Below, in pieces: positions 68-58,144 of a stretch of DNA of 64,000 bases (positions are counted from its first letter, which is position 1; each line of letters opens with the position of its first letter). Source of the DNA: a virus. The notes beneath the pieces were generated by a model, which was given only the letters and a program-made list of their open reading frames with translations, was not told where the DNA came from and did no database searches. The stretch lies in the IMG/VR virus record IMGVR_UViG_3300045988_162908; one strand, 5' to 3'. The position numbers and the translations under genes were made by a program.

Positions 68-3000
68 ATGGCGTACAAAAATGCTCCGTCTCAACCTTCA
101 AAACCAACTGTTGAAGACTTGTCTCAGCTATCTGACGGATGGTCTCGCACACCTCAGAAAGGTGGGTCTTATAACAAGGTGAGCAACATCAGCTACGGAA
201 ATTACAGCGTCGATAATACTACGAGCGGATATAGCACCTCGGAGTGGTCGGAAGTTTCCGATAGTGGAGAAACATGGCGAAAATCTCCTTCTGGGCTGTC
301 TGATAACTACGGATGGGCAATAATGAAAGTATCATTTTCTACGAATGTAGATAATTCGGACGTTAAAGTTATTATTAAGGCTTATTCCGAGGGCAACTAT
401 GACTTCATTCAAGTTCATGCACTTGATACGGAGATAACAGGTTCAAGCAGCCTTCGGAAGACGGGTGTAGCGTATACATCAGGCAACAGCGTAGAGGATT
501 CGTATTCTTACCACGTGGCAACGGCAGGACAGCATTTCTTCTATGTCTCTTATTGTAAGGATAGTAGCGGTAATGCTAACGGAGACTATGGTTTATTCCG
601 CTTCGACCTATCCGATAATCTCGTCTCTATGCCATCAACGGTATGGATGAGTCAGGCTGTGCTGAAAGACGGGAAGGCTGTACTTCCTTGGTCAACACCT
701 GTACAGATAACAGGCGATGATGCCTATCGAGTAGAAGTTTCTCCATCCACTCTCGTTTTCGATACAAACGAAAATGGTCTTGTTGACTCTGCTACATTAA
801 GCGGTAAATATGCGACTGTGACTGTCTATAAGGGCAATCAGAAGATAAGCGCAGACAACCTCTCTCTGCCAAGCAATTACGCAACGAAAAAATGCACAAA
901 CGTAGATGGCAAAATATCTAATGTCAATGGAGAGGCAAGAATTACTATTGATAGAATAGAACAGGAAACTATTAGCGGAGACGAAAAAGTCAGCAAGTCA
1001 AGCGGACAGATTTCCTTCCCTATCGACGTGTTTGGAGAGCGAAGTACTCTTATGTGGGTTACGGTAAACGTGCAAGTCAACGTTTCTAAGTTCACTGGTT
1101 CTGTAGCATTTGACAATAAGGGCTACAAGGCACAATTTGATGAATTGTCAAAGAATGCTGCAACTAAAAACGAGCTGACCCAAGCAACGTCGAAATTTGA
1201 ACAGACGGCAAGGGAAATCTCACTTTCTGTGAGCGAAAAGTCGATAGCGAGACGTAACCTTCTCGTGGGGAGTGCATTCCAGCGTGATGATAATAACGTC
1301 GAAATATCTGATGGCGCAAGAATCGAGATGAACTCGGGTTATCAGGGCACGAATTGCATTCATATCATTGACGAGACTGACAGGACACCACACTATCTTG
1401 GTGCGTTTTGGGATGGTTCACAGGGTGGTAAGAGTATCGAGATAACAAAGGGCAAGAAGTATATTATATCATGCTGGTATATGACCAATGATGTGAATGG
1501 ACACCTTTATCTTAAAGCGCTTTATACGGACAAGCAGACAAATGCAAAAAGGCAAGGAGGTCCAAACTATCTCTCACCAAGCGCTTTCACTGTTAAAAAG
1601 GTCAATGAATGGGAATTGTTCACAGCGGTTATAGATACAACCGATGCACAATATAATTATCTCGCCTTTAACTTTTTTGAGTCTTGTAATGGCAAATTTG
1701 GTCGCATTGAAGCTTGGATTTGCAGACCGATGGTCGAGGAAGGTGATACTTACAACGGCTGGACGCTATCACAAAACGATTACGACATCATCGGTGCTAA
1801 CTTGATTGACAATTCAAGGACGCTTGATGCAGGTGGTAATGTGCTGGAAGTGAAGGGTCAGAAAGCTCTTGTGGGCGATGCTTATGAACTCACATATATA
1901 GGCTCTGACGACTACAATACATTCTATCGAATAAAAGGCAGCACCTTCCAGCTCGGCGTAGATTATACTATCAGCTTCGAGGTAAGAGGCGATGCTGAGT
2001 ATATGGGTGTATATGCCTATTATCCTATCACAAACACCAAGTTCACTTTTTACGCAGAATCGAAGAATGGTGCAATGACCGAAGTGACAGATGGCGGAAA
2101 GGTTGATAATTATGTTGCTTTGATTCAAGTAAAAGAGCTATCTAAGCAGCAGAGGGTGTGGAGTCATTTTCGATTCAAGGACAGACTTCCTGATCATATC
2201 TACTTCCTGTTCCCAAAGAATGCGCAACAGACTGGCGTAACGAGCTGGAGTGTGGCCATCACGAAGCCGAAAATCGAGGTGGGCGCAGTCGTTACTGAGT
2301 ACACTGAGCGCAAGAGCGACCTTGTGGATAAGGCAAGCTTGAAGGCAGCAGGTATAGAAATTACGAGCGACCAAGTTACCTTGTATGGCAATCAGATACA
2401 CGTAAAGAAGAACAAGACTGATGCAAACGATACAGTGCTTATCGACAACGAGACAGGCCAGGTGTCGGCAGGGCTGATAAATGCTAATAAAGTTGTAGCG
2501 GATGGTATTAAAACGCAGGACCTTGAAGCGCAAAATCTGAATGTGACAGGTAATAGCCGACTTGGAATCTTTCGGATAAAGACATCGGGCGCAGACGAGA
2601 GGGACCAATATACCATAGCTGGCGATATGATTACATACAGCGGAGATTATAAATTCCCTGACGGAACAACGACTATTACTTCTGATGACGGTTTAGCCTA
2701 CTTGATGTACAAGCCTTTGTTCATCAGACAAGGTGCCCCTGATGCGGGTAAGTATATGAGACTCGGAAATTGCTACACAGAATGGGACGATTCCGGATTT
2801 GGTTTTGACCATAGTTATCTATTCAATGGTGCGTCGGCGAGATATGTATGCGGCGGAGTAGAATCTGAGTGTAAAAAGTATGTCCTGCCTACAGATCTGA
2901 CTTACAACGCTAATTATTTCCCAGTCTCGTACATATATTCCATTAAGTCCTCTCCGAATGACCCTGCTTTCGCCATCAATGTGCAAAAGGCAGAAAACAC

Positions 3001-3364
3001 AACAGGTGAGCGAACGGCTATACAGACAAACGGCGCTATACGAGGAGTGTTAGCACCAAACACAGAGATTATTAGTGATACTCAGCAAATATTAAACGGC
3101 GTCGGAATCGTTATTTGCACAAATCCTTCTGATATGACGTTAACACTTCCTGCCAATCCTGTTGATGGTCAGACGATGATAATTATTCAAGGTAATGACA
3201 AAAGGGTATATATCGTTCCTCCTAAAGGCGATACGATATATTGGGGTGGTCAGACGAGATACGATACCGGCAATAGATTCTATTCGGGAACGATAGGACA
3301 GTTTACTATCCTTGTTTTTATCCGTGGGGCTTGGCAACTGCAATTCATGAATTATCGTCCATAA
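68..3364 (+). CDS. large tail-fibre / receptor-binding-like structural protein (1098 aa)
   Basis: Uninterrupted 3.3-kb ORF, S/T/N/G-rich. Two internal segments resemble carbohydrate-binding jelly-roll modules (RRNLLVGSAF..., GANLIDNSRT...). It lies directly 5' of the DGR-diversified fibre gene. The frame is open from nt 2 to the ATG at 68, so the true start may lie upstream of the window. Confidence 0.55.
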   Translation: MAYKNAPSQPSKPTVEDLSQLSDGWSRTPQKGGSYNKVSNISYGNYSVDNTTSGYSTSEWSEVSDSGETWRKSPSGLSDNYGWAIMKVSFSTNVDNSDVKVIIKAYSEGNYDFIQVHALDTEITGSSSLRKTGVAYTSGNSVEDSYSYHVATAGQHFFYVSYCKDSSGNANGDYGLFRFDLSDNLVSMPSTVWMSQAVLKDGKAVLPWSTPVQITGDDAYRVEVSPSTLVFDTNENGLVDSATLSGKYATVTVYKGNQKISADNLSLPSNYATKKCTNVDGKISNVNGEARITIDRIEQETISGDEKVSKSSGQISFPIDVFGERSTLMWVTVNVQVNVSKFTGSVAFDNKGYKAQFDELSKNAATKNELTQATSKFEQTAREISLSVSEKSIARRNLLVGSAFQRDDNNVEISDGARIEMNSGYQGTNCIHIIDETDRTPHYLGAFWDGSQGGKSIEITKGKKYIISCWYMTNDVNGHLYLKALYTDKQTNAKRQGGPNYLSPSAFTVKKVNEWELFTAVIDTTDAQYNYLAFNFFESCNGKFGRIEAWICRPMVEEGDTYNGWTLSQNDYDIIGANLIDNSRTLDAGGNVLEVKGQKALVGDAYELTYIGSDDYNTFYRIKGSTFQLGVDYTISFEVRGDAEYMGVYAYYPITNTKFTFYAESKNGAMTEVTDGGKVDNYVALIQVKELSKQQRVWSHFRFKDRLPDHIYFLFPKNAQQTGVTSWSVAITKPKIEVGAVVTEYTERKSDLVDKASLKAAGIEITSDQVTLYGNQIHVKKNKTDANDTVLIDNETGQVSAGLINANKVVADGIKTQDLEAQNLNVTGNSRLGIFRIKTSGADERDQYTIAGDMITYSGDYKFPDGTTTITSDDGLAYLMYKPLFIRQGAPDAGKYMRLGNCYTEWDDSGFGFDHSYLFNGASARYVCGGVESECKKYVLPTDLTYNANYFPVSYIYSIKSSPNDPAFAINVQKAENTTGERTAIQTNGAIRGVLAPNTEIISDTQQILNGVGIVICTNPSDMTLTLPANPVDGQTMIIIQGNDKRVYIVPPKGDTIYWGGQTRYDTGNRFYSGTIGQFTILVFIRGAWQLQFMNYRP

Positions 3365-3382: not shown

Positions 3383-6184
3383 ATGAAAAAAATAGTGAAA
3401 GGAAATGACTTCACGCTGCGAATCCCAGTGATGAAGATGGTAGAGGGGACAGCTCAGGCTTTCCCTCTGCCAGCCTGTACCGACGTGCTGGTACAGGTGT
3501 GTAATCAGTTTAGGCGCATCCCTCTTGCATTTGAGATTGATGTAAAGGAGGACAATGTTCTCCTTGCGAGAGTAGAGGGTGACAAGATGAGCCTCGGAAC
3601 TTACGCCATCGAGGTAAGGGGCAAAATCTTCGGCAATGACTGGCGAAGCAACGAATATCCTCAGTTTTCCATTGTAGCTAAGAATGCCGATGCTGATACT
3701 GAATTTGGAGAGACTGACGAGGGCGATAATAGCGTGGAGATGGATACCGCTATAGTCATCCTCCCTCCTTCCGTGGAATTGTCTGACCTCATCAATAAGG
3801 CGAATGATGCTCTCAAAACCAACAAGGAGACAAACGATACCCTCAATACTAACGAGGAAGCACGTAAGGAAGCAGAGGTGAAACGAGTATCTGCCGAGTC
3901 TGAGCGAGTATCTTCCGAACAGACGAGAGTATCTGCTGAGGATGCTCGCATGACGGCAGAGACCAGTCGTGTAAATGCGGAATCCGACCGAGAGCGAGCG
4001 GAAGATGCTCGTACCCAAATCGAGATTGAGCGACAGGCAAATGAACTTACACGCAAGGATAACGAGGCGAAGCGTATCAATGCTGAAACATTAAGGAACA
4101 ATGCCGAGAAGTTGCGTGTCTTGCAAGAGAATGAGCGCAAGGGTAACGAGGACGTTCGTAAGTCAGATGAGGATGCACGTATCAAGGCTGAAAGCGCACG
4201 TAGCAAGGCTGAGACCAAGAGAGAGGAAGATTTCTCTGCATCAAAGGAAGCCGCTGACAACGCAACCGAAAAAGCTTTATCTACTTATTCCCACCCTCCT
4301 TATGCTGATAGCGATGGTTTCTATTACAAGTGGAATCCTGACACGCAGAGTTACGACAAGACGGATGTGAACTTGAAGGCGCAGCCTAGCAAACCAGCCT
4401 TTGTCTTCAAGTCGGTTGAAGAAATGGAGACTACGGACATAAATAACTTCGACCTGTATGATTATGTTATCATCAATACCGACGATACAGAGGATGAGGA
4501 CAATGCGAAGCTGTACCTCATAGACAAGAACGAGGATGGCACAAAATATTACCATTACCTTGTTGATATGAGTGGTTTCCGTGGATTTGCTGGCAAGACA
4601 CCTCAAATCTCCATCGGAACGATTACCACCCTACTTCCTAGCGAGAAGGCTAGTGTAGCCATGACCAGCGACGGTATGGATGAGCAAGGAAACCCCAAAT
4701 ACGTCATTAACTTCGCTATTCCGCAAGGACGGAAAGGCGATAAGGGTGATTCATTTTCTTACGCTGACTTCACGGCAGAGCAAATCGAGGAGCTACAAAA
4801 ACCTGCTACTGATGTTATTGCAACACTTGGTCAGACCAAGGTGGATTGTGAGAATGCTACAAAGGCAGCAAACGATGCTGCTTCTGACGCTACCGTAGCT
4901 AAGACCAAGGCAGAGAACGCTGCTTCTGGGGCAGAGAAGTGTAACGTCATCCTTGAAGGCTCTACTATCTCTGTGACCAACAGACACGGAGAAACCGAGT
5001 CGGTAGATGTTATTAATACCGACGAGGAAGTAACCGTTACCATCGCCTCTTCTGTGGAATCTATCAAGGTGGCAGGCATTAAGATTAATGTGTTCCTCAA
5101 TAACGGAAAGACACCTCAGAGCTATACCACCAACGCAGAGGGTAAGGCTACATTCACTATTTATCGAGGAAACTACTATCAGGTCGTATTCCCTGAGTAT
5201 GGCAATGCGCAGCCTATCGCTCCTCAAGGCTATACAGCAGTATTGGGCAGTCGTAATATCAATGTAGAATATCTGCCTTACGATGAAGACAGTATGGAGA
5301 AGGCGATTATCACGGTTACTAAGTACGATAATAACGTGGGGACGGCATGGGAAGGTATTCCTGTTGTTGTGACCGTTGACAGAAAAGATACCACCTATCA
5401 AACTGACGCAAAAGGTCAGGTAACGGTATTCGTACCATATAAGAAGGAATATACTGTAAGAATTGATAATCAGGATGGCTATAACGTTAGCTTTAACAAA
5501 AATTCAAGAACCAATACCGCGAATGTTCCTCAGAGACTTATCGACTACAGGTTCTATCAGTTTAAGGCAGGTATTTTTGTAGTAGATATTGACAAAAATG
5601 AGTACTACATCGAGGACTGGGTAGCAGCAGGCAAAACCGCTGATGATGCGGTAGCTATCAAGGTGGCGGATGCCTCATTATTAGTCAATCATGGTACTTT
5701 CTGTATCCGTACAAGTGACATTAAGAACGTGTCGCAGTTGGTCAGTAAGCCATGGTGTACACAGAACTTGCAGTTCGATTCTATTGCGCTGAATGGTAAT
5801 AATGTAAAAGATGCAAATTACTACAACGGAGAATCTTCATCATACCTTATCAGACAGGAGGCTCAGGAGCGAAGTTTATCTGTGCCAGCTTTTGATTATG
5901 CCTACGATCAGATATTCACAATCGGTGATGAAGAACTTCATGGATTTGTCATGTCGGTTGGTCAGGAATACGTACATGTAGCCAATATCGGTATCATCAA
6001 ACAGGTGTTGGAAACCCTGTATGGCGAAGAAGTAGCTACTAATTATTACGACTTTGTGATGAAGAAATACAGATGGACTTCTACGCAGGGCAGCGCTACG
6101 AACGCTTGGACCTTCAGTAGTAGTGCAAGCAACTTCTACTCCAAGTGGTACGGTTCCGTGGTCCTGCCAGTTTACGCTTGTTAA
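3383..6184 (+). CDS. DGR target protein: tail-fibre-like, with coiled coil, two prealbumin/Ig-like repeats and a C-terminal variable domain
   Basis: 933-aa ORF. Residues ~150-290 are a charged AE..R-type repeat coiled coil. Two NAEGKATF / DAKGQVTV beta-sandwich-like repeats follow. The last 33 codons carry the VR, which matches the downstream TR with adenine-only substitutions. Confidence 0.85.
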   Translation: MKKIVKGNDFTLRIPVMKMVEGTAQAFPLPACTDVLVQVCNQFRRIPLAFEIDVKEDNVLLARVEGDKMSLGTYAIEVRGKIFGNDWRSNEYPQFSIVAKNADADTEFGETDEGDNSVEMDTAIVILPPSVELSDLINKANDALKTNKETNDTLNTNEEARKEAEVKRVSAESERVSSEQTRVSAEDARMTAETSRVNAESDRERAEDARTQIEIERQANELTRKDNEAKRINAETLRNNAEKLRVLQENERKGNEDVRKSDEDARIKAESARSKAETKREEDFSASKEAADNATEKALSTYSHPPYADSDGFYYKWNPDTQSYDKTDVNLKAQPSKPAFVFKSVEEMETTDINNFDLYDYVIINTDDTEDEDNAKLYLIDKNEDGTKYYHYLVDMSGFRGFAGKTPQISIGTITTLLPSEKASVAMTSDGMDEQGNPKYVINFAIPQGRKGDKGDSFSYADFTAEQIEELQKPATDVIATLGQTKVDCENATKAANDAASDATVAKTKAENAASGAEKCNVILEGSTISVTNRHGETESVDVINTDEEVTVTIASSVESIKVAGIKINVFLNNGKTPQSYTTNAEGKATFTIYRGNYYQVVFPEYGNAQPIAPQGYTAVLGSRNINVEYLPYDEDSMEKAIITVTKYDNNVGTAWEGIPVVVTVDRKDTTYQTDAKGQVTVFVPYKKEYTVRIDNQDGYNVSFNKNSRTNTANVPQRLIDYRFYQFKAGIFVVDIDKNEYYIEDWVAAGKTADDAVAIKVADASLLVNHGTFCIRTSDIKNVSQLVSKPWCTQNLQFDSIALNGNNVKDANYYNGESSSYLIRQEAQERSLSVPAFDYAYDQIFTIGDEELHGFVMSVGQEYVHVANIGIIKQVLETLYGEEVATNYYDFVMKKYRWTSTQGSATNAWTFSSSASNFYSKWYGSVVLPVYAC
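6082..6176 (+). repeat. DGR variable repeat (VR)
   Basis: 95 nt aligning to TR 6772-6863. There are 9 substitutions, every one at a TR adenine, plus one 3-nt length difference. The 3' block GTGGTCCTGCCAGTTTACG is identical in both. Confidence 0.85.
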
Positions 6185-6298
6185 TCTCTTTATCTCTTCA
6201 AAATCTCTTCCTCTCTCCATGTAAGCAGCGAGCAGGCAGCGAGCAATGAGCAGGGAGGAGGGATATAAGAGCAATTTTTAATTTCATTCCCTTAAAAA

Positions 6299-6916
6299 AT
6301 GGCATTTACAGAGGATTTGTACATATATAAAGATACGCTACTCTTGTGCAAGATATTACTCAAGTATAGTAATAGCGTGAGTAGAACCGTCAGATTTACA
6401 ACCTACAATGAAGCGGTCGTCAAGTCTTGTACAGCTCTTGACTTGGTTAGGAGAATTAATGAAAGTTGGGAGAATAGAGAGGAGCGTATGCACGATTATA
6501 TTCTGCTTATGTCGGAAGTTAAGTCAAGGATCAGCCTCCTCACGGATGCCGAGTTCTTAAACAAGAAACAGGCAACTAACCTTAATATGATGTCAGACAA
6601 GGTACTGAAGGAGGTGTACGGCTGGCGGAAGTCTGAGCGGAAGCGCAAAGGCGAGAATTGCAGAGTCAACGACAATGCGAGAGTGCCGTCACTGGATGTG
6701 ACAAGGGGTACAATCACGCAACTCACTTATGTGAGAAGTGAGCAGACTGAAAAACAGAGAATGTACCGAGATACGCAGAGCAGCGCTACGAACGCTTGGA
6801 ACTACAGTAGTAGTGCAAACAACAACTACAAGTGGAACAGTTACGTGGTCCTGCCAGTTTACGATTATCCAACAGTGACGAATGCCTCTGTATTTGCTAT
6901 TTTTAAAGGGATATGA
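6299..6916 (+). CDS. avd: Avd-like DGR accessory protein; the ORF reads on through the TR
   Basis: The first ~125 aa are helical and end in a basic GWRKSERKRKG tail, like four-helix-bundle Avd proteins. The position between target gene and TR/RT is canonical. There is no stop until 6916 because the TR is stop-free in this frame. The stop overlaps the RT start (ATGA). Confidence 0.6.
   Translation: MAFTEDLYIYKDTLLLCKILLKYSNSVSRTVRFTTYNEAVVKSCTALDLVRRINESWENREERMHDYILLMSEVKSRISLLTDAEFLNKKQATNLNMMSDKVLKEVYGWRKSERKRKGENCRVNDNARVPSLDVTRGTITQLTYVRSEQTEKQRMYRDTQSSATNAWNYSSSANNNYKWNSYVVLPVYDYPTVTNASVFAIFKGI
6772..6863 (+). repeat. DGR template repeat (TR)
   Basis: 92 nt homologous to the VR. It is adenine-rich at the diversified codons (AAC AAC AAC TAC AAG TGG AAC AGT TAC) and lies 50 nt upstream of the RT start. 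Confidence 0.85.
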
Positions 6917-8079
6917 AATTTGAAAGAGAATATGTTACGATAGAAGAGGTGTATGCCGCCTATTATGACTGCTGCAAGCATAAAGGTTCAACACCAGGTT
7001 GCATCGAATATCAGATGAACTACATTGCGAATAATTATCAGCTATATATCGAACTCAACTCGATGATATATGAGATAAGTAAGAGCAAGGCGTTTTGTGT
7101 GACGAGACCAAAGCTCAGGGAAGTGTTCTGTGCAGATTTCCGTGACCGCATCATTCACCATCTGCTTGCTATCAAGTTCACGGATATACTCGAAGGCGAA
7201 ATGACAGATAAGGCGTATGCCTGCCGTAAGGGTAAGGGAACTGGTTATGGTATCGCTGATGTCAAGAAGCAAATAAAGCGAGTGAGCGATAACTATACTA
7301 AGGAAGCATGGATATTGAAAGGTGATTTACAGGGCTTCTTCATGAGCATCAATCGTTTACTCCTTTACGACCTCTTCGAAAAGGCCATCAGAAAAAAGTA
7401 TCATGGAAGTGATATAGAATGGTGGCTGTGGCTATGGAAGAAAGTCGTCTTACATGACCCGACAAAGAACTGTGTTCGAGTAGGCGATTTGAGCTTGTGG
7501 GATAAGCTTCCTGCTAACAAGTCGCTTTTTACCTGCGGTGAGGGCAAGGGACTCCCGATCGGCAACCTGCCATCGCAATTACTTGCCAACCTTCTGCTAT
7601 CTCGATTCGATAAGCTGATGATAGAGCGAGTGGGCGAAGATGGTGGATATGGCAGATATGTAGATGATTTTGTGGTTATCGGTAGGGATAAAAAGTTACT
7701 CCTGAATATTCTGCAAGAGGCAAGGAACTATCTGTTAGAAGAGCTTGGTCTTACGTTGCATCCTCATAAGGTTAGCCTACAGAGAGCAGCGAGTGGAGTG
7801 AGGTTCACGGGCGTATTAATTCGTCCAGGCAGGACACTTCCAAACCAACGAACGATAGAACATCTATATGACGTGATTGATAGGTTCGGGATGGCGCCCA
7901 ACCCTGAAGGTGAAGTATTACAGAGGTATGCAAACCGCATCAACAGTCTGATGGGTATGCTTGCTCATTGCAATACTTATAACATTAGACGAAAAGCGTG
8001 GACTATGATGCCGCACAAAGACAGAGTTTTCTGCATAAATATGAAGAAAATTAGAATAATGAATAAATATAAAATGTAA
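6913..8079 (+). CDS. DGR reverse transcriptase
   Basis: 388 aa with RT motifs LKGDLQGFF, GLPIGNLPSQLLANLLL (the IGxxxSQ signature of DGR RTs), YGRYVDDFVVIG and LTLHPHKV. It lies adjacent to the TR. Confidence 0.9.
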   Translation: MKFEREYVTIEEVYAAYYDCCKHKGSTPGCIEYQMNYIANNYQLYIELNSMIYEISKSKAFCVTRPKLREVFCADFRDRIIHHLLAIKFTDILEGEMTDKAYACRKGKGTGYGIADVKKQIKRVSDNYTKEAWILKGDLQGFFMSINRLLLYDLFEKAIRKKYHGSDIEWWLWLWKKVVLHDPTKNCVRVGDLSLWDKLPANKSLFTCGEGKGLPIGNLPSQLLANLLLSRFDKLMIERVGEDGGYGRYVDDFVVIGRDKKLLLNILQEARNYLLEELGLTLHPHKVSLQRAASGVRFTGVLIRPGRTLPNQRTIEHLYDVIDRFGMAPNPEGEVLQRYANRINSLMGMLAHCNTYNIRRKAWTMMPHKDRVFCINMKKIRIMNKYKM

Positions 8080-8085
8080 AAGATT

Positions 8086-8676
8086 ATGAAAAAAATTAAT
8101 TTTATCAAGGCCTTTATCCCTAAAGGCGATTTTAGTGAAAAGTATGAGCATGGAGGAATAATGGTTCGCCATCTTGCTGCTGTGCTTGACGAAAAAATGG
8201 GAGCTTACGAATGCTACGAGTGTACCGTTCCTATCGGTGAGTACGATGAAAACGAGGTTCAGAAGGCATTTGTTGAGTTTTCGGCTAAGATGAATGCCTT
8301 GGATCTCGAACAGGCAAAGGCTGATAAGATAGCAGAAATCACAGCCTACGACAAATCCCCTGCTGTCAATGCTTTTTACCTTAACGGAGAACAACATTGG
8401 CTCGACTTTAATTTAAGAGACCGAGTATTTGATGGTAATGAGAGAATTGCTTATAAGGGTCGAGAAGAGACGAGCCTTTGGCTTGATGGAAAGTGTTTTG
8501 TCATGCCTATCACAGTAGCTCAAGACCTCATCTGTACTATTGAGGTGTATGCTAAGGATTGCTACAATGTGACCGCTACTCATCAGGCAGAGGTCAATAA
8601 GCTGACAACCATTGAGGAGGTAGAGGCTTATAACTATAAGACGGGTTATCCTGAAAAGCTTAATCTCAAAGTGTAG
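8086..8676 (+). CDS. hypothetical protein, possibly fibre-associated (DUF4376-like C-terminal half)
   Basis: 196-aa ORF starting 7 nt after the RT stop. The C-terminal pattern (LEQAKADKIAEI...VNAFYLNGEQHWLD...YAKDCYNVTATH) recalls a domain common next to phage fibre genes. Recognised from memory only. Confidence 0.4.
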   Translation: MKKINFIKAFIPKGDFSEKYEHGGIMVRHLAAVLDEKMGAYECYECTVPIGEYDENEVQKAFVEFSAKMNALDLEQAKADKIAEITAYDKSPAVNAFYLNGEQHWLDFNLRDRVFDGNERIAYKGREETSLWLDGKCFVMPITVAQDLICTIEVYAKDCYNVTATHQAEVNKLTTIEEVEAYNYKTGYPEKLNLKV

Positions 8677-8768
8677 CATCATTTTCCCATCATCGGGAAA
8701 AATGATAGCACCATTTTCCTGATGTCACGAAAATGGTAAGACCATTTTGTTGACGTCGATAAAATGGT
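8677..8768. repeat. three phased inverted repeats (CATCATTTTCCC/GGGAAAAATGAT; ACCATTTTC/GAAAATGGT; ACCATTTT/AAAATGGT)
   Basis: Hairpins or dyads at 8677-8706, 8710-8737 and 8741-8768. Their centres are ~31-32 bp apart. They lie between the DGR block and the lysis-like genes. Confidence 0.6.
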
Positions 8769-8801: not shown

Positions 8802-9368
8802 ATGTATGTATTAAGTATGATTTCTTTCCTTCTGTGGGCAGGATTTCTCTTGCTCGCAGCCATGCGGTTCGGCATTCCCGACATGATGAGTGATGTGTAT
8901 TACCAGTTGCAGAGGTGTACGGGCAGTGAAGTGATAGGCGATAAGCGTAAGCGAAATTATGGATGGGTATTTACCGCTGTCATGGTGGCGAGTGCGATAC
9001 TGATGCTCATCCCTATGCTCGACTCTGGCAAGGGAATCCAATGCCTTTCCTTTTTGGGGTGCGCAGGACTGATGTTCGTAGGAGCTGCACCCAACTATAT
9101 TGACAAAGATACCATGCCCGTCCATAAATGCGGTGCGATCGTGGCAGCCATCGGGTGCGTAGGCTGGTGTATGAGCGTGAATATCCTTCCTACGGCCATC
9201 CTTGCAGTGATGCTTCTGCTCACCCTTTGGATTTTGAATAAGCAATGGGAATACTGCCTTGTAGATCGTGATGGACGTGAGCCGGAAATGCACTTGCATC
9301 CCTGGTATTGGATAGAGATAGCGGGTTTCCTTGATGTATATCTCACATATTGGTTGTGCGTATGCTGA
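8802..9368 (+). CDS. multi-pass membrane protein (lysis-cassette neighbour)
   Basis: 188 aa with 5-6 hydrophobic segments. Its end overlaps the next small membrane ORF. Confidence 0.55.
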   Translation: MYVLSMISFLLWAGFLLLAAMRFGIPDMMSDVYYQLQRCTGSEVIGDKRKRNYGWVFTAVMVASAILMLIPMLDSGKGIQCLSFLGCAGLMFVGAAPNYIDKDTMPVHKCGAIVAAIGCVGWCMSVNILPTAILAVMLLLTLWILNKQWEYCLVDRDGREPEMHLHPWYWIEIAGFLDVYLTYWLCVC

Positions 9369-27995: not shown

Positions 27996-28040
27996 CACAG
28001 GAAGCGGCTATATACTGCTTCCTGTGACAAAATATAAAAC
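27996..28040 (+). promoter_or_regulatory. class-3 element: stem CACAGGAAGC/GCTTCCTGTG, then ACAAAATATAAAAC
   Basis: Perfect 10-bp stem (27996-28005 / 28017-28026). The tail motif is shared with 27358-27374 and 45414-45432. Confidence 0.5.
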
Positions 28041-28068
28041 TAATAACATATTAAAGTCGAAAACTGAA

Positions 28069-29025
28069 ATGAAGAAGAAGAACTTTTTAGTGGCTGCTCT
28101 GATGATGGCAGCAAGCGTGATGTCCCTTACATCATGCAGCGAAAACGAAGTAATCAATCAGTCTGAAGAACAAGATCAGAGTGCAGACCATGGTAAGGTT
28201 GCGGTCAAGTTAGTCTGCTCCCCTACTCCATCGGTAACTTACACCCGTGCATCCATGACAGCGAATGGCAAGCAGCTCACGGATCTCTACATCCTTGACT
28301 ACAACAAGGCAACCGGCAAACTGCTCCAGGTATTACACCAGACGAGCACGGCAGAAGACTTTGCCGAGCCTACGCTGAACCTCGATTACGGCAACCACAT
28401 TTTCAAGGTGATTGCTACGAGAAGCGCATCCCCTACCCTATTGGGTGAAGATGGCGCTTTATGGAACCTGCAGGAGAACACTGCTTTTGCGGTAGCCGAT
28501 GATGGCAATGTGCCTGTAATATGGACGAGTGACAAGACCTCTGATAGTTTCGGAGCTTCGCAGGATGTCAATGTAGGCATAGGCAAGGACCAGACCATCC
28601 ATATCCAGTTGGAGCGTATGGTAGCGAAATTGGTACTCAAGAATACGGGTACCTTTCCGGCTGATTGCAGCACCATCCAGTTGTCTCTCGACGAGTACAA
28701 GACCTGGAACTGGCAAAGCTTCTCCGTTATGGAAGCTGCAAAAAATCAGCGTATCTCTGACGCTTCGCAGTATGCTGGCCAAACGGGTAGTACTATTTCC
28801 TACTTCTTCCTGGCTCCTGATGGCGATGGCTACACTACGGACATTTCTCTCCAGATGAACCGCAAGGATAGCAACGAGCCGTATGCTGCCTTCACCATCC
28901 CGAATGTGCGCCTCCAGCGTAACCGTATCACTACCATAAGCGGTTCTTATTATGACCACCAGTCCGGCTTTTCCCTTACGGTAAATGATGCGTGGGAGGA
29001 AGAACAGAACAATGTAGAGTTTTGA
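28069..29025 (+). CDS. lipoprotein, possibly fimbrillin/Mfa-like
   Basis: ATG at 28069 gives MKKKNFLVAALMMAASVMSLTSC (lipobox). The body has the beta-rich, TRA-containing N-terminal pattern seen in Bacteroidota fimbrial lipoproteins (weak). Confidence 0.6.
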   Translation: MKKKNFLVAALMMAASVMSLTSCSENEVINQSEEQDQSADHGKVAVKLVCSPTPSVTYTRASMTANGKQLTDLYILDYNKATGKLLQVLHQTSTAEDFAEPTLNLDYGNHIFKVIATRSASPTLLGEDGALWNLQENTAFAVADDGNVPVIWTSDKTSDSFGASQDVNVGIGKDQTIHIQLERMVAKLVLKNTGTFPADCSTIQLSLDEYKTWNWQSFSVMEAAKNQRISDASQYAGQTGSTISYFFLAPDGDGYTTDISLQMNRKDSNEPYAAFTIPNVRLQRNRITTISGSYYDHQSGFSLTVNDAWEEEQNNVEF

Positions 29026-29661: not shown

Positions 29662-30537
29662 ATGGCAGAAACAAGATTGAAAGAAATCCTCGCCTTCGTA
29701 AATCACAAGGGAGGAGTTGGTAAGACAACAACAGTTCAGAGTTTGGCAACAGGTCTTCGTCGTTACGGCAAAGGTCATTTCGGTTTGGGTAAAGATGGCA
29801 AGGAGCGCAAGCCTCGCATCCTGCTAATTGACCTTGACCCCCAGTCAAGTCTCTCCTTCCTCTTTGGATGGAGTGAGGCAGAGAATGCCGGGCAGCCTAC
29901 CGTATATGATGCGATGATACAGCAGTCTCGTTTGCCTGTCTATCAGGTAAGAGAGGGCATATATCTCGCTCCTGCATCTTACAGATTGATCAACATCGAG
30001 CCTTTCCTCAACCAGATGCCGGTACCACGCAAGGCTTTGTTTAAGCTATTCAGTAAGCCGATGACGGAAGTTCGAGGCGACGAATTGACAACGGAAGGAG
30101 TTTCATCTATCCTGGAGGCTTTCGATTACGTTCTGATAGACTGCCCCCCAGCGTTATCTCTGCTTACGCATAATGCCCTATCGGTTGCATCGGGCGTGGT
30201 AATACCTATCCAGCTCGAAATGCTGGCAACAAAAGGTATTGCTGAAATTCTGAATGCGGTGCAGGAAACTCGTGAAGACTTGAATCCTGATATTGATATT
30301 CGCGGTTTGTTCATGGTAATGAGCAATGATCAGACAAGAGCCACTAAGCAGTTTAAGGAGTATCTGGGCAATAAGTTTGATGACTATATGTTTGATTCAT
30401 ACACTCGTCGAGATACGAAGATGGTGGAGGCACAAGCCCTCAATCAGGATATATTCTCTTATTCGCCTTATTGCAGGGTAGGACAAGACTATGAGAATTT
30501 TACGAAAGAGATATTGGCCAGTATGCCGAAAGATTAA
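29662..30537 (+). CDS. parA: ParA/Soj-family partition ATPase
   Basis: Deviant Walker A NHKGGVGKTTT at the N-terminus. Walker B-like VLIDCPP. 291 aa. Confidence 0.85.
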   Translation: MAETRLKEILAFVNHKGGVGKTTTVQSLATGLRRYGKGHFGLGKDGKERKPRILLIDLDPQSSLSFLFGWSEAENAGQPTVYDAMIQQSRLPVYQVREGIYLAPASYRLINIEPFLNQMPVPRKALFKLFSKPMTEVRGDELTTEGVSSILEAFDYVLIDCPPALSLLTHNALSVASGVVIPIQLEMLATKGIAEILNAVQETREDLNPDIDIRGLFMVMSNDQTRATKQFKEYLGNKFDDYMFDSYTRRDTKMVEAQALNQDIFSYSPYCRVGQDYENFTKEILASMPKD

Positions 30538-49233: not shown

Positions 49234-50226
49234 ATGAAAACAGAAACGAAAGAGACTCCTATAAAGGGAACATTGATTTACCAGCCGCAGGGTGCGGCTG
49301 GCGAATACGCAAAGTGGGCAATCAATCTCTATCATGGTTGCTCCAATGGTTGCACTTATTGCTATAATCGCAGAGGGGTACTGAGTCATGCCTTTGGCGA
49401 CAAGCCAGAGTTAGCAGCACCTATCGTGAAAGCAAGAGATAAGTATCTTAATAGATATATGAAAAAAAATAATCTGACCGCACACGATGCTATTCCGCAA
49501 AAAGTTATTCGAGATACGACTGCTGTTGTTGCCCTAAATATTGTAGCTAAAGATATAAAAAGAATTGGGGAAGATGTAATTCGTGAAGACGGAGGAATTT
49601 TCTTTTCGTTTATTTGTGATCCGTTTGATCCTGATACAGATATAGATATGCTGCGAATGATGGTTTTTGTATTCTTAGATCATCAAATTCCAGTTACAAT
49701 ACTTACCAAAAATATAGATTGGTTAGGAAACGGAAAATGGAAAGCTTTTTTGGAACCTGATACCTATTGTCCGGATGAAGATTTCCTTCGTTACCTCACC
49801 ATCGGCTTTACTATCACCGGAAAAGATAAGTTTGAGCCTGGCGCTCCTTCTACTAAGGAACGTATCGAAGCCCTGCGTAAGTTGCATGATGAATACAAGA
49901 TTAAGACTTTCGTATCTTTGGAGCCGATAACGGACCTCGATATAGCATTGGAAGTAATCAAGGAAACATCCAAGATTACGAATGAAATACGCCTCGGTGT
50001 TCAGTCGCCTATCAAAAAAGATAGATATGACCCTAACGAGTTTACCGGTTTCGTTGTCTTGGTTAAAATCATGGCACGTAGTCTTGATTGCCGTTTCATG
50101 GTAAAGGAAAGCATGTATAAGCAGGCTGAAACTTTTGAAGGTGATGATAGAGATGTGTGTGTCGCGAAACTTGATGAAATAAGAAAGATTTATGAATCAA
50201 AGCAAACAGAAAATGATGAAAAGTAA
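49234..50226 (+). CDS. radical SAM enzyme (SplB / DNA-photolyase-like subgroup)
   Basis: NLYHGCSNGCTYCYNRRG contains CX3CX2C in the GCxxGCxYCY context typical of this subgroup. 330 aa. Confidence 0.65.
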   Translation: MKTETKETPIKGTLIYQPQGAAGEYAKWAINLYHGCSNGCTYCYNRRGVLSHAFGDKPELAAPIVKARDKYLNRYMKKNNLTAHDAIPQKVIRDTTAVVALNIVAKDIKRIGEDVIREDGGIFFSFICDPFDPDTDIDMLRMMVFVFLDHQIPVTILTKNIDWLGNGKWKAFLEPDTYCPDEDFLRYLTIGFTITGKDKFEPGAPSTKERIEALRKLHDEYKIKTFVSLEPITDLDIALEVIKETSKITNEIRLGVQSPIKKDRYDPNEFTGFVVLVKIMARSLDCRFMVKESMYKQAETFEGDDRDVCVAKLDEIRKIYESKQTENDEK

Positions 50227-57526: not shown

Positions 57527-58144
57527 ATGTCAAGAATATATGAAGATGAAAAGAATGCGGATCATTCCGTTATTCATCTGATGGTAAATACAAATTGTGA
57601 TAATCATTGCATGTTATGTTGTAATGACCAATACTTTTTAAGTTCTGTTCCGGTTGTAACGGTAGAGGAACTTAACAACGCTAAAACTGTGTTGCTAACA
57701 GGTGGCGAACCTTTCAAGATTCCATACTTTGCTGATTTCGTGCAAAATCTGCGCGGCCAGTATAAAAACATAGAAAACCTTTATGTTTATACTTCGGGAT
57801 ATTCTATGTACCACAACGTAGAACAATGGAACAAAAATAAGGTTTATACTGATATTGATGGCGTAAACATCTCACCTAAAGGAACCAATCGTGAACGTTG
57901 GGCTATACAAGGTATGTTAGGAAAGAATGCGATGGATTGTTTCTTTTATATATTTGCCTCCATGAAAAGCTGCAGGCTTATCTTAATGGACCGCAAGGAG
58001 AAAAATGACGAGTTTCTTTCTACCTTGAATCTCCAACAATTCATAGACCTTGGGGTTCGTTTCGATGTAGAGTATCGTGATTGGCAAAGTGAGTTTCAGC
58101 CTAACGGCGGGGTGTGGAGAAGATTACCGGTATTGTTTAATTAA
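57527..58144 (+). CDS. small radical SAM enzyme (QueE / activase-like size class)
   Basis: NTNCDNHCMLCCND (CX3CX2C) and the SAM-binding-like VLLTGGEPF. 205 aa. Confidence 0.6.
   Translation: MSRIYEDEKNADHSVIHLMVNTNCDNHCMLCCNDQYFLSSVPVVTVEELNNAKTVLLTGGEPFKIPYFADFVQNLRGQYKNIENLYVYTSGYSMYHNVEQWNKNKVYTDIDGVNISPKGTNRERWAIQGMLGKNAMDCFFYIFASMKSCRLILMDRKEKNDEFLSTLNLQQFIDLGVRFDVEYRDWQSEFQPNGGVWRRLPVLFN

Follow-up and report, generated by a model that had tools for sequence, protein, structure and literature searches.

Does the region at positions 3383-8079 of the virus record IMGVR_UViG_3300045988_162908 hold a complete and working diversity-generating retroelement (DGR), or do its parts only look like one? 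We analyzed a stretch of 64,000 nucleotides (nt) from this record, hereafter "the window", to which all coordinates refer. A first-pass annotation of its sequence had described a DGR in which a reverse transcriptase (RT), an accessory gene (avd), and a template repeat (TR) act on a variable repeat (VR) at the end of a tail-fiber gene. With a probability of about 0.9, we conclude that the region is indeed a complete and canonical phage DGR in the order target, avd, TR, and RT. Five lines of evidence support this conclusion: an adenine-specific TR/VR pair, an RT, an Avd homologue, the placement of the VR in a lectin-like tip, and variation across the population. The anatomy of the element, its adenine pattern, the homology of RT and Avd, the fold of the target, the hypervariability of the VR, and the conservation of the TR are directly supported by the data presented here. 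The main components are as follows.

3383-6184, + strand: target gene, encoding a tail-fiber-like protein of 933 amino acids (aa) in which a coiled coil (residues ~140-300) is followed by a receptor-binding-type domain at the C-terminus
5582-6181, + strand: C-terminal 200-aa domain of DUF1566/Lcl_C type (C-type-lectin-like), which bears the VR
6082-6176, + strand: VR, the final ~33 codons of the target, located by repeat finding and local alignment
6299-6697, + strand: avd, the portion with homology to the shorter Avd (118-133 aa) found in sister clades (match to phrog_3206, "Avd protein of DGR", 9.4e-5)
6698-6916, + strand: read-through extension of avd across the avd-TR gap and the entire TR, in frame and reaching 4 nt into the RT open reading frame (ORF) through an ATGA overlap
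6772-6863, + strand: TR, located by repeat finding and local alignment, with weaker homology to the VR flank extending 5' to ~6748
6913-8079, + strand: DGR RT of 388 aa with IGNLPSQ and YVDD motifs (Pfam RVT_1, 8.5e-16; phrog_1423, 3e-76)

Adenine-specific differences between TR and VR

The order target, avd, TR, and RT along the + strand emerged from ORF listing, repeat finding, and local alignment, and the proposed likeness to the BPP-1 layout was borne out by the ORF listing and the BPP-1 GenBank record. Repeat finding and local alignment likewise recovered the VR and TR at the coordinates first proposed for them. Within a 91-nt core (TR 6773-6863), we counted nine substitutions, all nine at TR adenines (three to G, four to T, and two to C), the same tally as in the initial annotation: 6779 A>G, 6801 A>C, 6804 A>T, 6819 A>G, 6824 A>T, 6825 A>T, 6836 A>T, 6839 A>G, and 6843 A>C. 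Given 29 adenines among the 91 positions, the chance that all nine would fall on adenines is P=1.3e-5. The diversified TR codons had been listed as AAC, AGT, and TAC; all three are diversified, and the list lacked AGC, so that the set for the window reads AGC, AAC, TAC, and AGT. No second VR was found in the 64-kb window: since TR patterns with N at each adenine match only the VR and TR sites (with 0 matches expected in shuffles), the window holds a single VR.

Variation across related loci

The adenine pattern extends to related elements. A scan of IMG/VR by RT yielded 31 related loci (RT identity 69-100%), and a metagenome scan yielded 80 further loci (RT identity 38-94%), with a pipeline that sought VR, avd, TR, and RT in that order alone. 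Repeats were compared in 31 pairs from IMG/VR (30 IMG/VR loci plus the window) and in 52 parseable metagenome pairs. For the former, 326 of 342 core mismatches were located at TR adenines (Fisher p ~1e-157), as were 556 of 584 mismatches for the latter, i.e., the variation opposite other bases that the first-pass annotation had named as evidence against a DGR makes up only a small remainder. Per position, VR changes concentrate on the first two bases of AAC-type codons and are nearly absent at C, G, and T columns and at certain adenines (in ACG, CAG, and AAG), which are presumably spared through selection.

VRs also differ among related genomes, while their flanks and the TRs are conserved. 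In the 90% protein cluster that includes the window target, residue differences reach 24-60% inside the VR versus 1.4-10% outside it. Compared to five close relatives, the VR differs at 13.7-21.1% of positions and the TR at 3.3-8.7%. Relatives whose RTs are 91-100% identical carry other VRs, and these differ at adenine positions.

The TR itself shows some variation of its own. Within clades, 45 TR differences fall at consensus adenines versus 22 at other bases, and four relatives (L010, L011, L021, and L029) have lost 4-8 TR adenines. Such losses should shrink the diversification potential of these four elements, and VR-to-TR conversion or mis-homing into the TR is a possible cause.

A one-codon insertion in the AAC tract

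One feature of the repeat pair had been overlooked. The initial TR/VR comparison was right about the substitutions and missed a one-codon insertion in the VR, which makes it 3 nt longer than the TR.

6128-6142, + strand: five NNC codons in the VR opposite four TR codons, a one-codon insertion in an AAC-repeat tract

Specifically, the VR reads AGC AAC TTC TAC TCC at 6128-6142, where the TR reads AAC AAC AAC TAC (6818-6829). Several placements of the gap were examined, in alignments and by eye, and every mismatch stays on an adenine in each of them.

Across the family, the tract between GC(A/G) and AAG holds four codons in every TR, and four, five, or six in VRs. Insertions of 3 or 6 nt in the VR occur in 7 of 31 IMG/VR pairs and 8 of 52 metagenome pairs (15 of 83 DNA pairs), and no deletion was found in the tract among these 83 pairs. 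Among protein tails (95 parseable out of 120 homologues), 80 have four codons, 13 have five, one has six, and one has seven. Overall, ~16-18% of VRs carry one to three additional codons, and none of the parsed pairs or protein tails falls below four. All codons inserted in the DNA loci are NNC, as would fit copies of AAC mutagenized at their adenines.

The extra VR codon is best explained by slippage of the RT by one repeat unit on AAC AAC AAC, and one-codon insertions in AAC repeats are DGR behavior already known. Indels between TR and VR are present in about 7% of DGRs, and 74% of these indels adjoin AAC; they have been attributed to slippage in multiples of three (PMC5758913), and slippage indels in multiples of 3 nt near AAC repeats have also been described elsewhere (PMC12875486). 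The elements in these two reports share with the present family a multiple-of-3 insertion in the AAC tract and the restriction of other differences to adenines, while the present family provides a population-scale sample in which insertions only were observed. This insertion-only pattern is indicative of either a bias in one direction or selection acting on the length of the loop.

The reverse transcriptase and Avd

All the RT motifs initially reported were found in ORF 6913-8079, namely LKGDLQGFF, PIGNLPSQLLANLLL (the IGxxxSQ signature), and YVDDFVV. The best solved relative of this RT is 8ub7_A, a 328-aa reverse transcriptase (E 8e-30) which we take to be the Bordetella phage BPP-1 bRT. The two align over two long stretches that include IGNLPSQ/IGSLTSQ and YVDD/YMDD. 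Among phages in GenBank, three Bacteroides uniformis phages that bear DGRs (F2, F4, and Bacuni_F1) have the nearest RTs, with identities of 41-43%.

A DGR-like repeat next to an RT could also arise if the two were unrelated, i.e., if a retron, group II, or defense RT happened to lie beside an ordinary duplication or gene conversion, or if the inverted repeat around avd and the TR were a DNA inversion site (considered below with that repeat). The unrelated-RT version draws on the NCBIfam matches of the RT, which are weak and all to group II, retron, and DRT models. These scores are however far under their cut-offs: 86 bits for group II (cut-off 300), 51 for retron (235), and 12-40 for Drt2, Drt3, and Drt4 (200-450). 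Group II, retron, and Cas-RT chains match the RT at 1e-5 to 6e-7, ~23 orders of magnitude poorer than 8ub7_A, so that similarity scores place the RT far closer to 8ub7_A than to the retron or group II relatives which the first-pass annotation had named as the contrary outcome. An Rfam scan of the whole window gave no family at gathering threshold and no group II intron or retron RNA. In addition, adenine-specific mismatches recur in >80 independent pairs, and the order VR, avd, TR, and RT was seen in every locus where a pair was found, albeit with a pipeline that sought that order alone. We therefore regard the alternative, in either version, as highly improbable, and these sequence comparisons support a placement of the RT within the DGR clade.

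The Avd-like ORF was correctly placed between target and TR. Its N-terminal ~120 residues are the region matching phrog_3206, and orthologues from different clades match the same family in six of six cases (best 1.3e-8). The Avd call draws on this PHROG family and on gene position, because a comparison with the BPP-1 protein bAvd and a search of PDB sequences with the Avd profile were negative. What had escaped notice is that the ORF also runs through the TR: ORF 6299-6916 spans 205 aa without a stop ahead of the TR. The avd genes of sister clades are 118-133 codons long and end 71-115 nt short of the TR. The read-through ORF (202-207 aa) is kept throughout the window clade, including metagenome loci down to ~83% RT identity, and could stem from a single ancestral loss of the stop codon. 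In this clade, the TR may be translated as well, as a C-terminal extension of Avd.

Boundaries of the repeats and a putative homing cycle

Beyond the core, TR and VR differ at two more positions, 6864 A>C and 6867 A>G. There, homology between the repeats stops after a common GTGGTCCTGCCAGTTTACG, followed by CTTGTTAA on the VR side and ATTATCCA on the TR side.

6177-6184, + strand: VR-specific 3' end CTTGTTAA, which includes the stop codon of the target
6864-6871, + strand: TR-specific 3' counterpart ATTATCCA

Since both 3' sequences recur in nearly all related loci, each fixed and distinct from the other, we read the differences at 6864 and 6867 as a boundary and not as mutagenesis. From its sequence and position, this pair may act as a boundary resembling the initiation of mutagenic homing sites IMH and IMH*.

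Current activity, the priming site, and the homing mechanism are features that we infer. Under the BPP-1 paradigm, the avd-TR-spacer region would be transcribed, and RT and Avd would reverse-transcribe the TR RNA (6772-6863), copying C, G, and U faithfully and misincorporating opposite adenines. The mutagenized cDNA would then replace the VR (6082-6176) at the 3' end of the target gene, and transfer would be one-way owing to the differing sequences past the VR (CTTGTTAA) and the TR (ATTATCCA).

A lectin-like domain at the tip of the target protein

The target had been called a tail-fiber gene with the VR in its last ~33 codons. The VR position in the 933-aa ORF was confirmed; the fiber identity is putative. 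The tail-fiber role is suggested by several features taken together: weak PHROG matches to minor tail and virion structural proteins, collagen repeats in some of the >4000 homologues, a C-terminal fold like that of annotated tail fibers, and a position after the gene of a 1859-aa protein.

As proposed at the outset, structure prediction of the C-terminus returned a lectin-like model of DUF1566/Lcl_C type. A first model of this domain, built from 50 close homologues, was unusable (pLDDT 41) and was replaced by an AlphaFold2 model based on a diverse alignment of 45 relatives (pLDDT 97.7, pTM 0.92). In a Foldseek search of BFVD, the top matches were phage proteins with a DUF1566 domain, from uncultured and crAss-like phages (E 1.9e-8; TM 0.72/0.64 across 205 columns), and an annotated tail fiber was also matched at its C-terminus. 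The last 200 residues have 127 representatives at 50% identity (in a search of 1.84 billion), nearly always C-terminal in proteins of varied length. No lectin family was detected by sequence for the window domain, either in Pfam up to E=10 or in a profile search of PDB sequences. A distant member of the family, P0236, matches Pfam Lcl_C at 1e-10, though a different stretch of P0236 is the one most similar to the window domain.

DUF1566/Lcl_C is a recognized class of lectin-like DGR target domains (PMC5758913). Its members (category "d", e.g., Legionella LdtA; PMC5758913) share with the present target a lectin-like C-terminal domain with the VR at its extreme C-terminus, and the match in fold to DUF1566 phage proteins; we also read the pattern at the tail of the window protein, WTSTQ..A..AW....K.....VLPV, as resembling the DUF1566 VR pattern of P0236. 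Unlike these targets, the window domain stays under all Pfam thresholds and sits on a phage fiber instead of a bacterial lipoprotein.

About ten codons are diversifiable here (six AAC, three TAC, and one AGC), which by our estimate could yield some 10^9 protein variants. These codons fall within the lectin-like domain, and this domain presumably determines receptor specificity.

Is the element still active?

The pattern of adenine differences could be a record of past activity in a DGR that is now fossil or inactive, and several observations weigh against the reading of a complete and canonical element. The same VR allele, within an identical target protein, was found on at least 24 contigs from several human-gut samples, so that this variant is widespread or, at the consensus level, stable. 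The 3-nt length gap means that the present VR is no plain copy of the present TR. The window TR departs from its clade consensus by A>T at 6827 and 6842 and G>A at 6856, leaving two adenines fewer than the consensus, and the ancestral stop codon of avd is gone, giving the 205-aa read-through. Other observations bear on likeness to the best-known systems: the Avd shows no similarity to BPP-1 bAvd by hhalign, nor any match in a profile search of PDB sequences, and for the fold of the target domain the top PDB match, 8q4e (C-terminal domain of Legionella Lcl), is a weak one with E 0.1 over 68 columns. Finally, no hairpin or cruciform was found 3' of the VR (DNA fold of 6150-6300 versus shuffles, z 0.22), and a weak purine/pyrimidine stem there is missing in sister clades. 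A GC-rich hairpin or cruciform after the VR is a BPP-1-type feature and is not universal.

We nevertheless consider an inactive DGR improbable. The RT ORF is intact with its YVDD motif, as is the Avd-homologous part of avd, and relatives with 91-100% identical RTs differ in VR at adenine positions. The read-through avd is kept in a clade with fresh adenine-only VR differences, and one-codon insertions have arisen independently in several clades, as ongoing slippage would predict.

A predicted long-range helix between the avd start and the spacer

The avd-TR-RT region contains a further conserved feature, a predicted long-range contact between the start of avd and the spacer that separates the TR from the RT gene.

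6864-6912, + strand: TR-RT spacer (49 nt), with a conserved GTGACG at 6876-6881; holds the 3' arm of the helix
6262-6324, + strand: 5' arm of the helix, with its core TGGCATTTACAGAGG at 6300-6314; covers the avd leader and start codon (6299)
6875-6936, + strand: 3' arm of the helix, with its core CCTCTGTATTTGCTA at 6885-6899; extends over the RT start (6913) as well in the window clade

The top inverted repeat of the region pairs 6288-6314 with 6885-6911. Computational folding of the 704-nt avd-TR-spacer RNA predicted a duplex of ~45-52 bp between 6262-6324 and 6875-6936 with a probability of ~1, in which 6285-6287 are predicted to pair with the RT AUG (6913-6915), and the avd AUG (6299-6301) with 6898-6900. 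Full-length folds of ten relatives, representing all IMG/VR clades, showed the same contact with mean pair probabilities of 0.69-0.94. RNAalifold applied to 25 non-identical concatenated arm regions recovered the helix, with compensatory UA<->CG and AU<->GC changes. Overall, 96% of helix cells were paired, compared to 30-50% with slid partners, and covariation exceeded that of 500 out of 500 shuffles.

At least eight clades with differing arms keep the complementarity between avd start and spacer, including G.U wobbles, down to ~46% RT identity. Examples of arm pairs from metagenomes are TGGCATACACGGAGA/TCTCCGTGTATGCCA, TGGCATACTCGGAGGAT/ATCCTTCGGGTATGCC, ACATGCTCTCAG.../...TGAGAGCATGT, and ACAGAAGGATG/CATCCTTCTGT. 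The conserved core includes or abuts the avd AUG, from +1 to +15/17 in several clades and from -8 to +2 in another.

An inverted repeat of this kind is also what a DNA inversion site would show. Invertons of Bacteroidales typically have inverted repeats on either side of segments of ~600 bp. The G.U wobbles in the arms would however be mismatches in DNA, and because of them we favor an RNA helix on the sense strand over a DNA inverted repeat.

Energy-based controls gave more uneven support. Duplex energy reached z <= -3 against shuffled spacers in 62 of 74 loci. Against native sliding windows, it was clearly exceptional in three of ten representatives (z -5.0, -3.5, and -3.1), and the uninterrupted stem was longer than in every background window in 16 of 75 loci. 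The case for the helix is therefore built mainly on its conserved position and on compensatory changes, the latter deriving from a limited number of clade-level events. The helix was not predicted in Bacteroides phage F2 (pair probabilities ~0.1), and among relatives at ~42% RT identity or below, it was weak in one locus (L114) and missing in two (L116 and L118).

The BPP-1 spacer takes part in two adjacent duplexes, the template:primer duplex with the 3' end of the TR and another with the last ~20 nt of avd. The latter, termed "cPRT Stop", is required for priming and halts polymerization. Similar duplexes were predicted in 207 of 278 Avd-type DGRs when 40 nt upstream and 100 nt downstream of the TR were folded (preprint 10.1101/2023.10.23.563531 for all three statements). 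By analogy, the helix described here could be an architectural element of the DGR RNA that corresponds to the avd:Sp "cPRT Stop" duplex of BPP-1, except that the upstream strand would be located ~470 nt further 5', at the avd start, and the enclosed loop would contain the whole of avd and the TR. We would place this role just short of even odds. It gains from the precedent of a required upstream-RNA/spacer duplex and from the helix data themselves (full-length folds, 96% pairing, covariation, and at least eight clades with distinct arms). In addition, a BPP-1-like duplex between the spacer and the 70 nt upstream of the TR is not conserved (-26 kcal/mol versus -56.5 for the avd start), which makes the avd-start:spacer helix the best candidate for a closing duplex. 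Conversely, a polymerization stop at this helix would leave the cDNA with ~470 nt of antisense sequence from avd that has no homology in the target, and the modest energy controls (3/10 representatives by native-window energy, 16/75 loci by stem length) and the missing helix in F2 count against it as well.

The location of the helix raises another prospect, that of a translational switch hiding the A-rich leader and start codon of avd, together with the start codon of the RT in the window clade. Such a switch may alternate between use of the RNA as messenger and as template, or may limit the dosage of Avd and RT. It would fit the constant presence of the core at the avd AUG and, in the window, the pairing of both AUGs. 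Translation in Bacteroidota also relies on unstructured leaders rather than on Shine-Dalgarno pairing. Coverage of the RT start is, on the other hand, specific to the window clade. From sequence features of this kind, we can put forward the switch only tentatively, with the odds leaning against it.

The architectural and switch roles are compatible with each other. A combined picture, which we offer as a speculative one, would be a DGR RNA closed by a helix of 15 to ~50 bp that encloses avd and the TR: a relocated avd:Sp duplex serving as an mRNA-or-template switch and coupling the dosage of the machinery to the fold of the RNA, with the TR translated on Avd in the window clade.

Phage context

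The window is part of a ~107-kb phage from human gut metagenomes: among the contigs that carry the identical target protein, the longest reaches ~107 kb. A megablast search of INPHARED phages found no nucleotide relative of the cassette, and a tRNA scan of the window found none. Most of the ~45 window ORFs that were scanned have no family match. The recognizable genes encode a ParA-like ATPase, a sliding-clamp homologue, an exonuclease, and a primase-like protein of 1229 aa.

29662-30537: ParA-like partition ATPase (Pfam AAA_31, 9e-36)

No integrase, replication initiator, or protelomerase was found among the scanned ORFs. The initial description of the phage as plasmid-maintained therefore comes down to the ParA-like ATPase, alongside the lack of an integrase among these ORFs, and an episomal state is possible on this sequence basis. 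The host is inferred to belong to Bacteroidales and is probably Prevotella, as suggested by a homologue binned in a Prevotella metagenome-assembled genome and by a gene for an Mfa1/FimD-like lipoprotein. This lipoprotein-like ORF (28024-29025) has weak similarity to Mfa1/FimD fimbrial proteins of Bacteroidales (NCBIfam E 2e-7, below cut-off); it is a hint at the host and possibly a phage-borne surface protein.

Several other features of the region were recorded. The first ORF of the window (68-3364) corresponds to the last 1098 residues of the 1859-aa protein that precedes the target. In the ~107-kb contigs, ketoacyl-synthase and acyl carrier protein (ACP)-like (PP-binding) genes lie directly upstream of the gene for this protein (region L034:1689-9982), an odd pairing beside phage fiber genes. 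Downstream of the RT, two neighboring 28-nt hairpin-forming palindromes (8699-8768) are located between ORFs 8086-8676 and 8802-9368. They can also be read as a 31-nt tandem repeat (AAAATG.T...ACCATTTT), and could be terminators or an operator. Two radical-SAM-like ORFs (49234-50226 and 57527-58144) are found in the replication/unknown module, with a Pfam hit below its cut-off and a weak PHROG match.

Comparison with known DGRs

The BPP-1 DGR (mtd-avd-TR-brt) offers the closest structural parallel. Its gene order, as confirmed in the GenBank record, is the same, and its VR likewise forms the C-terminal end of a tail protein that binds the receptor. Further common features are adenine-specific TR-to-VR differences, an avd between target and TR, a pairing of upstream RNA with the spacer (predicted here), and an RT that we take to be the closest solved relative (E 8e-30), with IGxxxSQ and YxDD motifs. 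The two elements differ in several ways. The target is of DUF1566/Lcl_C type here and of Mtd type there, and the Avd here has no detectable similarity to bAvd and is encoded by an ORF that reads through the TR. The spacer before the RT ORF is 49 nt here and ~144 nt in BPP-1, and it pairs with the start of avd, at a distance of ~470 nt from the TR, rather than with the last 20 nt of avd. The hairpin after the VR was not found here.

DGRs on tail fibers of gut Bacteroidota phages are well documented (PMC8008677, PMC8143477, PMC12386605). Those of Bacteroides uniformis phages F1, F2, and F4 (PMC8143477) hold the nearest GenBank-phage RTs (41-43%) and share the target-avd-TR-RT order, a Bacteroidales host, and a human gut origin. 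In these phages too, the TR region is open as an ORF, with a 4-nt overlap with the RT start. However, they are siphophages of ~30-40 kb with a recombinase, compared to a phage of ~107 kb here; their avd and TR ORF are separate genes, and F2 lacks the predicted long-range helix.

The DGRs of Quimbyvirus and other gut phages (PMC8008677) and of Zeta crAss-like phages (PMC12386605) likewise belong to human-gut Bacteroidota phages and have lectin-type tail-protein targets. One Quimby-like branch is also without a recognizable integrase (PMC8008677). The RT is a single intact ORF here, whereas frameshifts are needed in Quimbyvirus, and relative to both groups the present element has one VR and no nucleotide match in INPHARED. 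Zeta crAss-like phages are larger (155-190 kb) and carry many tRNAs, compared to ~107 kb and no tRNA in the window here.

As a DGR, the locus is thus a well-formed further example of a known element type, by which gut Bacteroidales phages re-target their receptor-binding proteins. The read-through avd-TR ORF and the avd-start:spacer helix are the sole aspects that DGR specialists might find new.

Implications for DGR biology

Going by the covarying helix, the spacer may pair with an upstream sequence that is hundreds of nt away from the TR and overlaps with translation starts. A helix of this kind would have escaped published surveys, in which folding was restricted to the 40 nt before the TR. 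With >100 related loci and >4000 target homologues publicly available, the family represents a natural data set for the details of DGR function. Specifically, it could inform how often and in which direction the RT slips, how templates erode through adenine loss, and what RNA architecture is needed around the TR.

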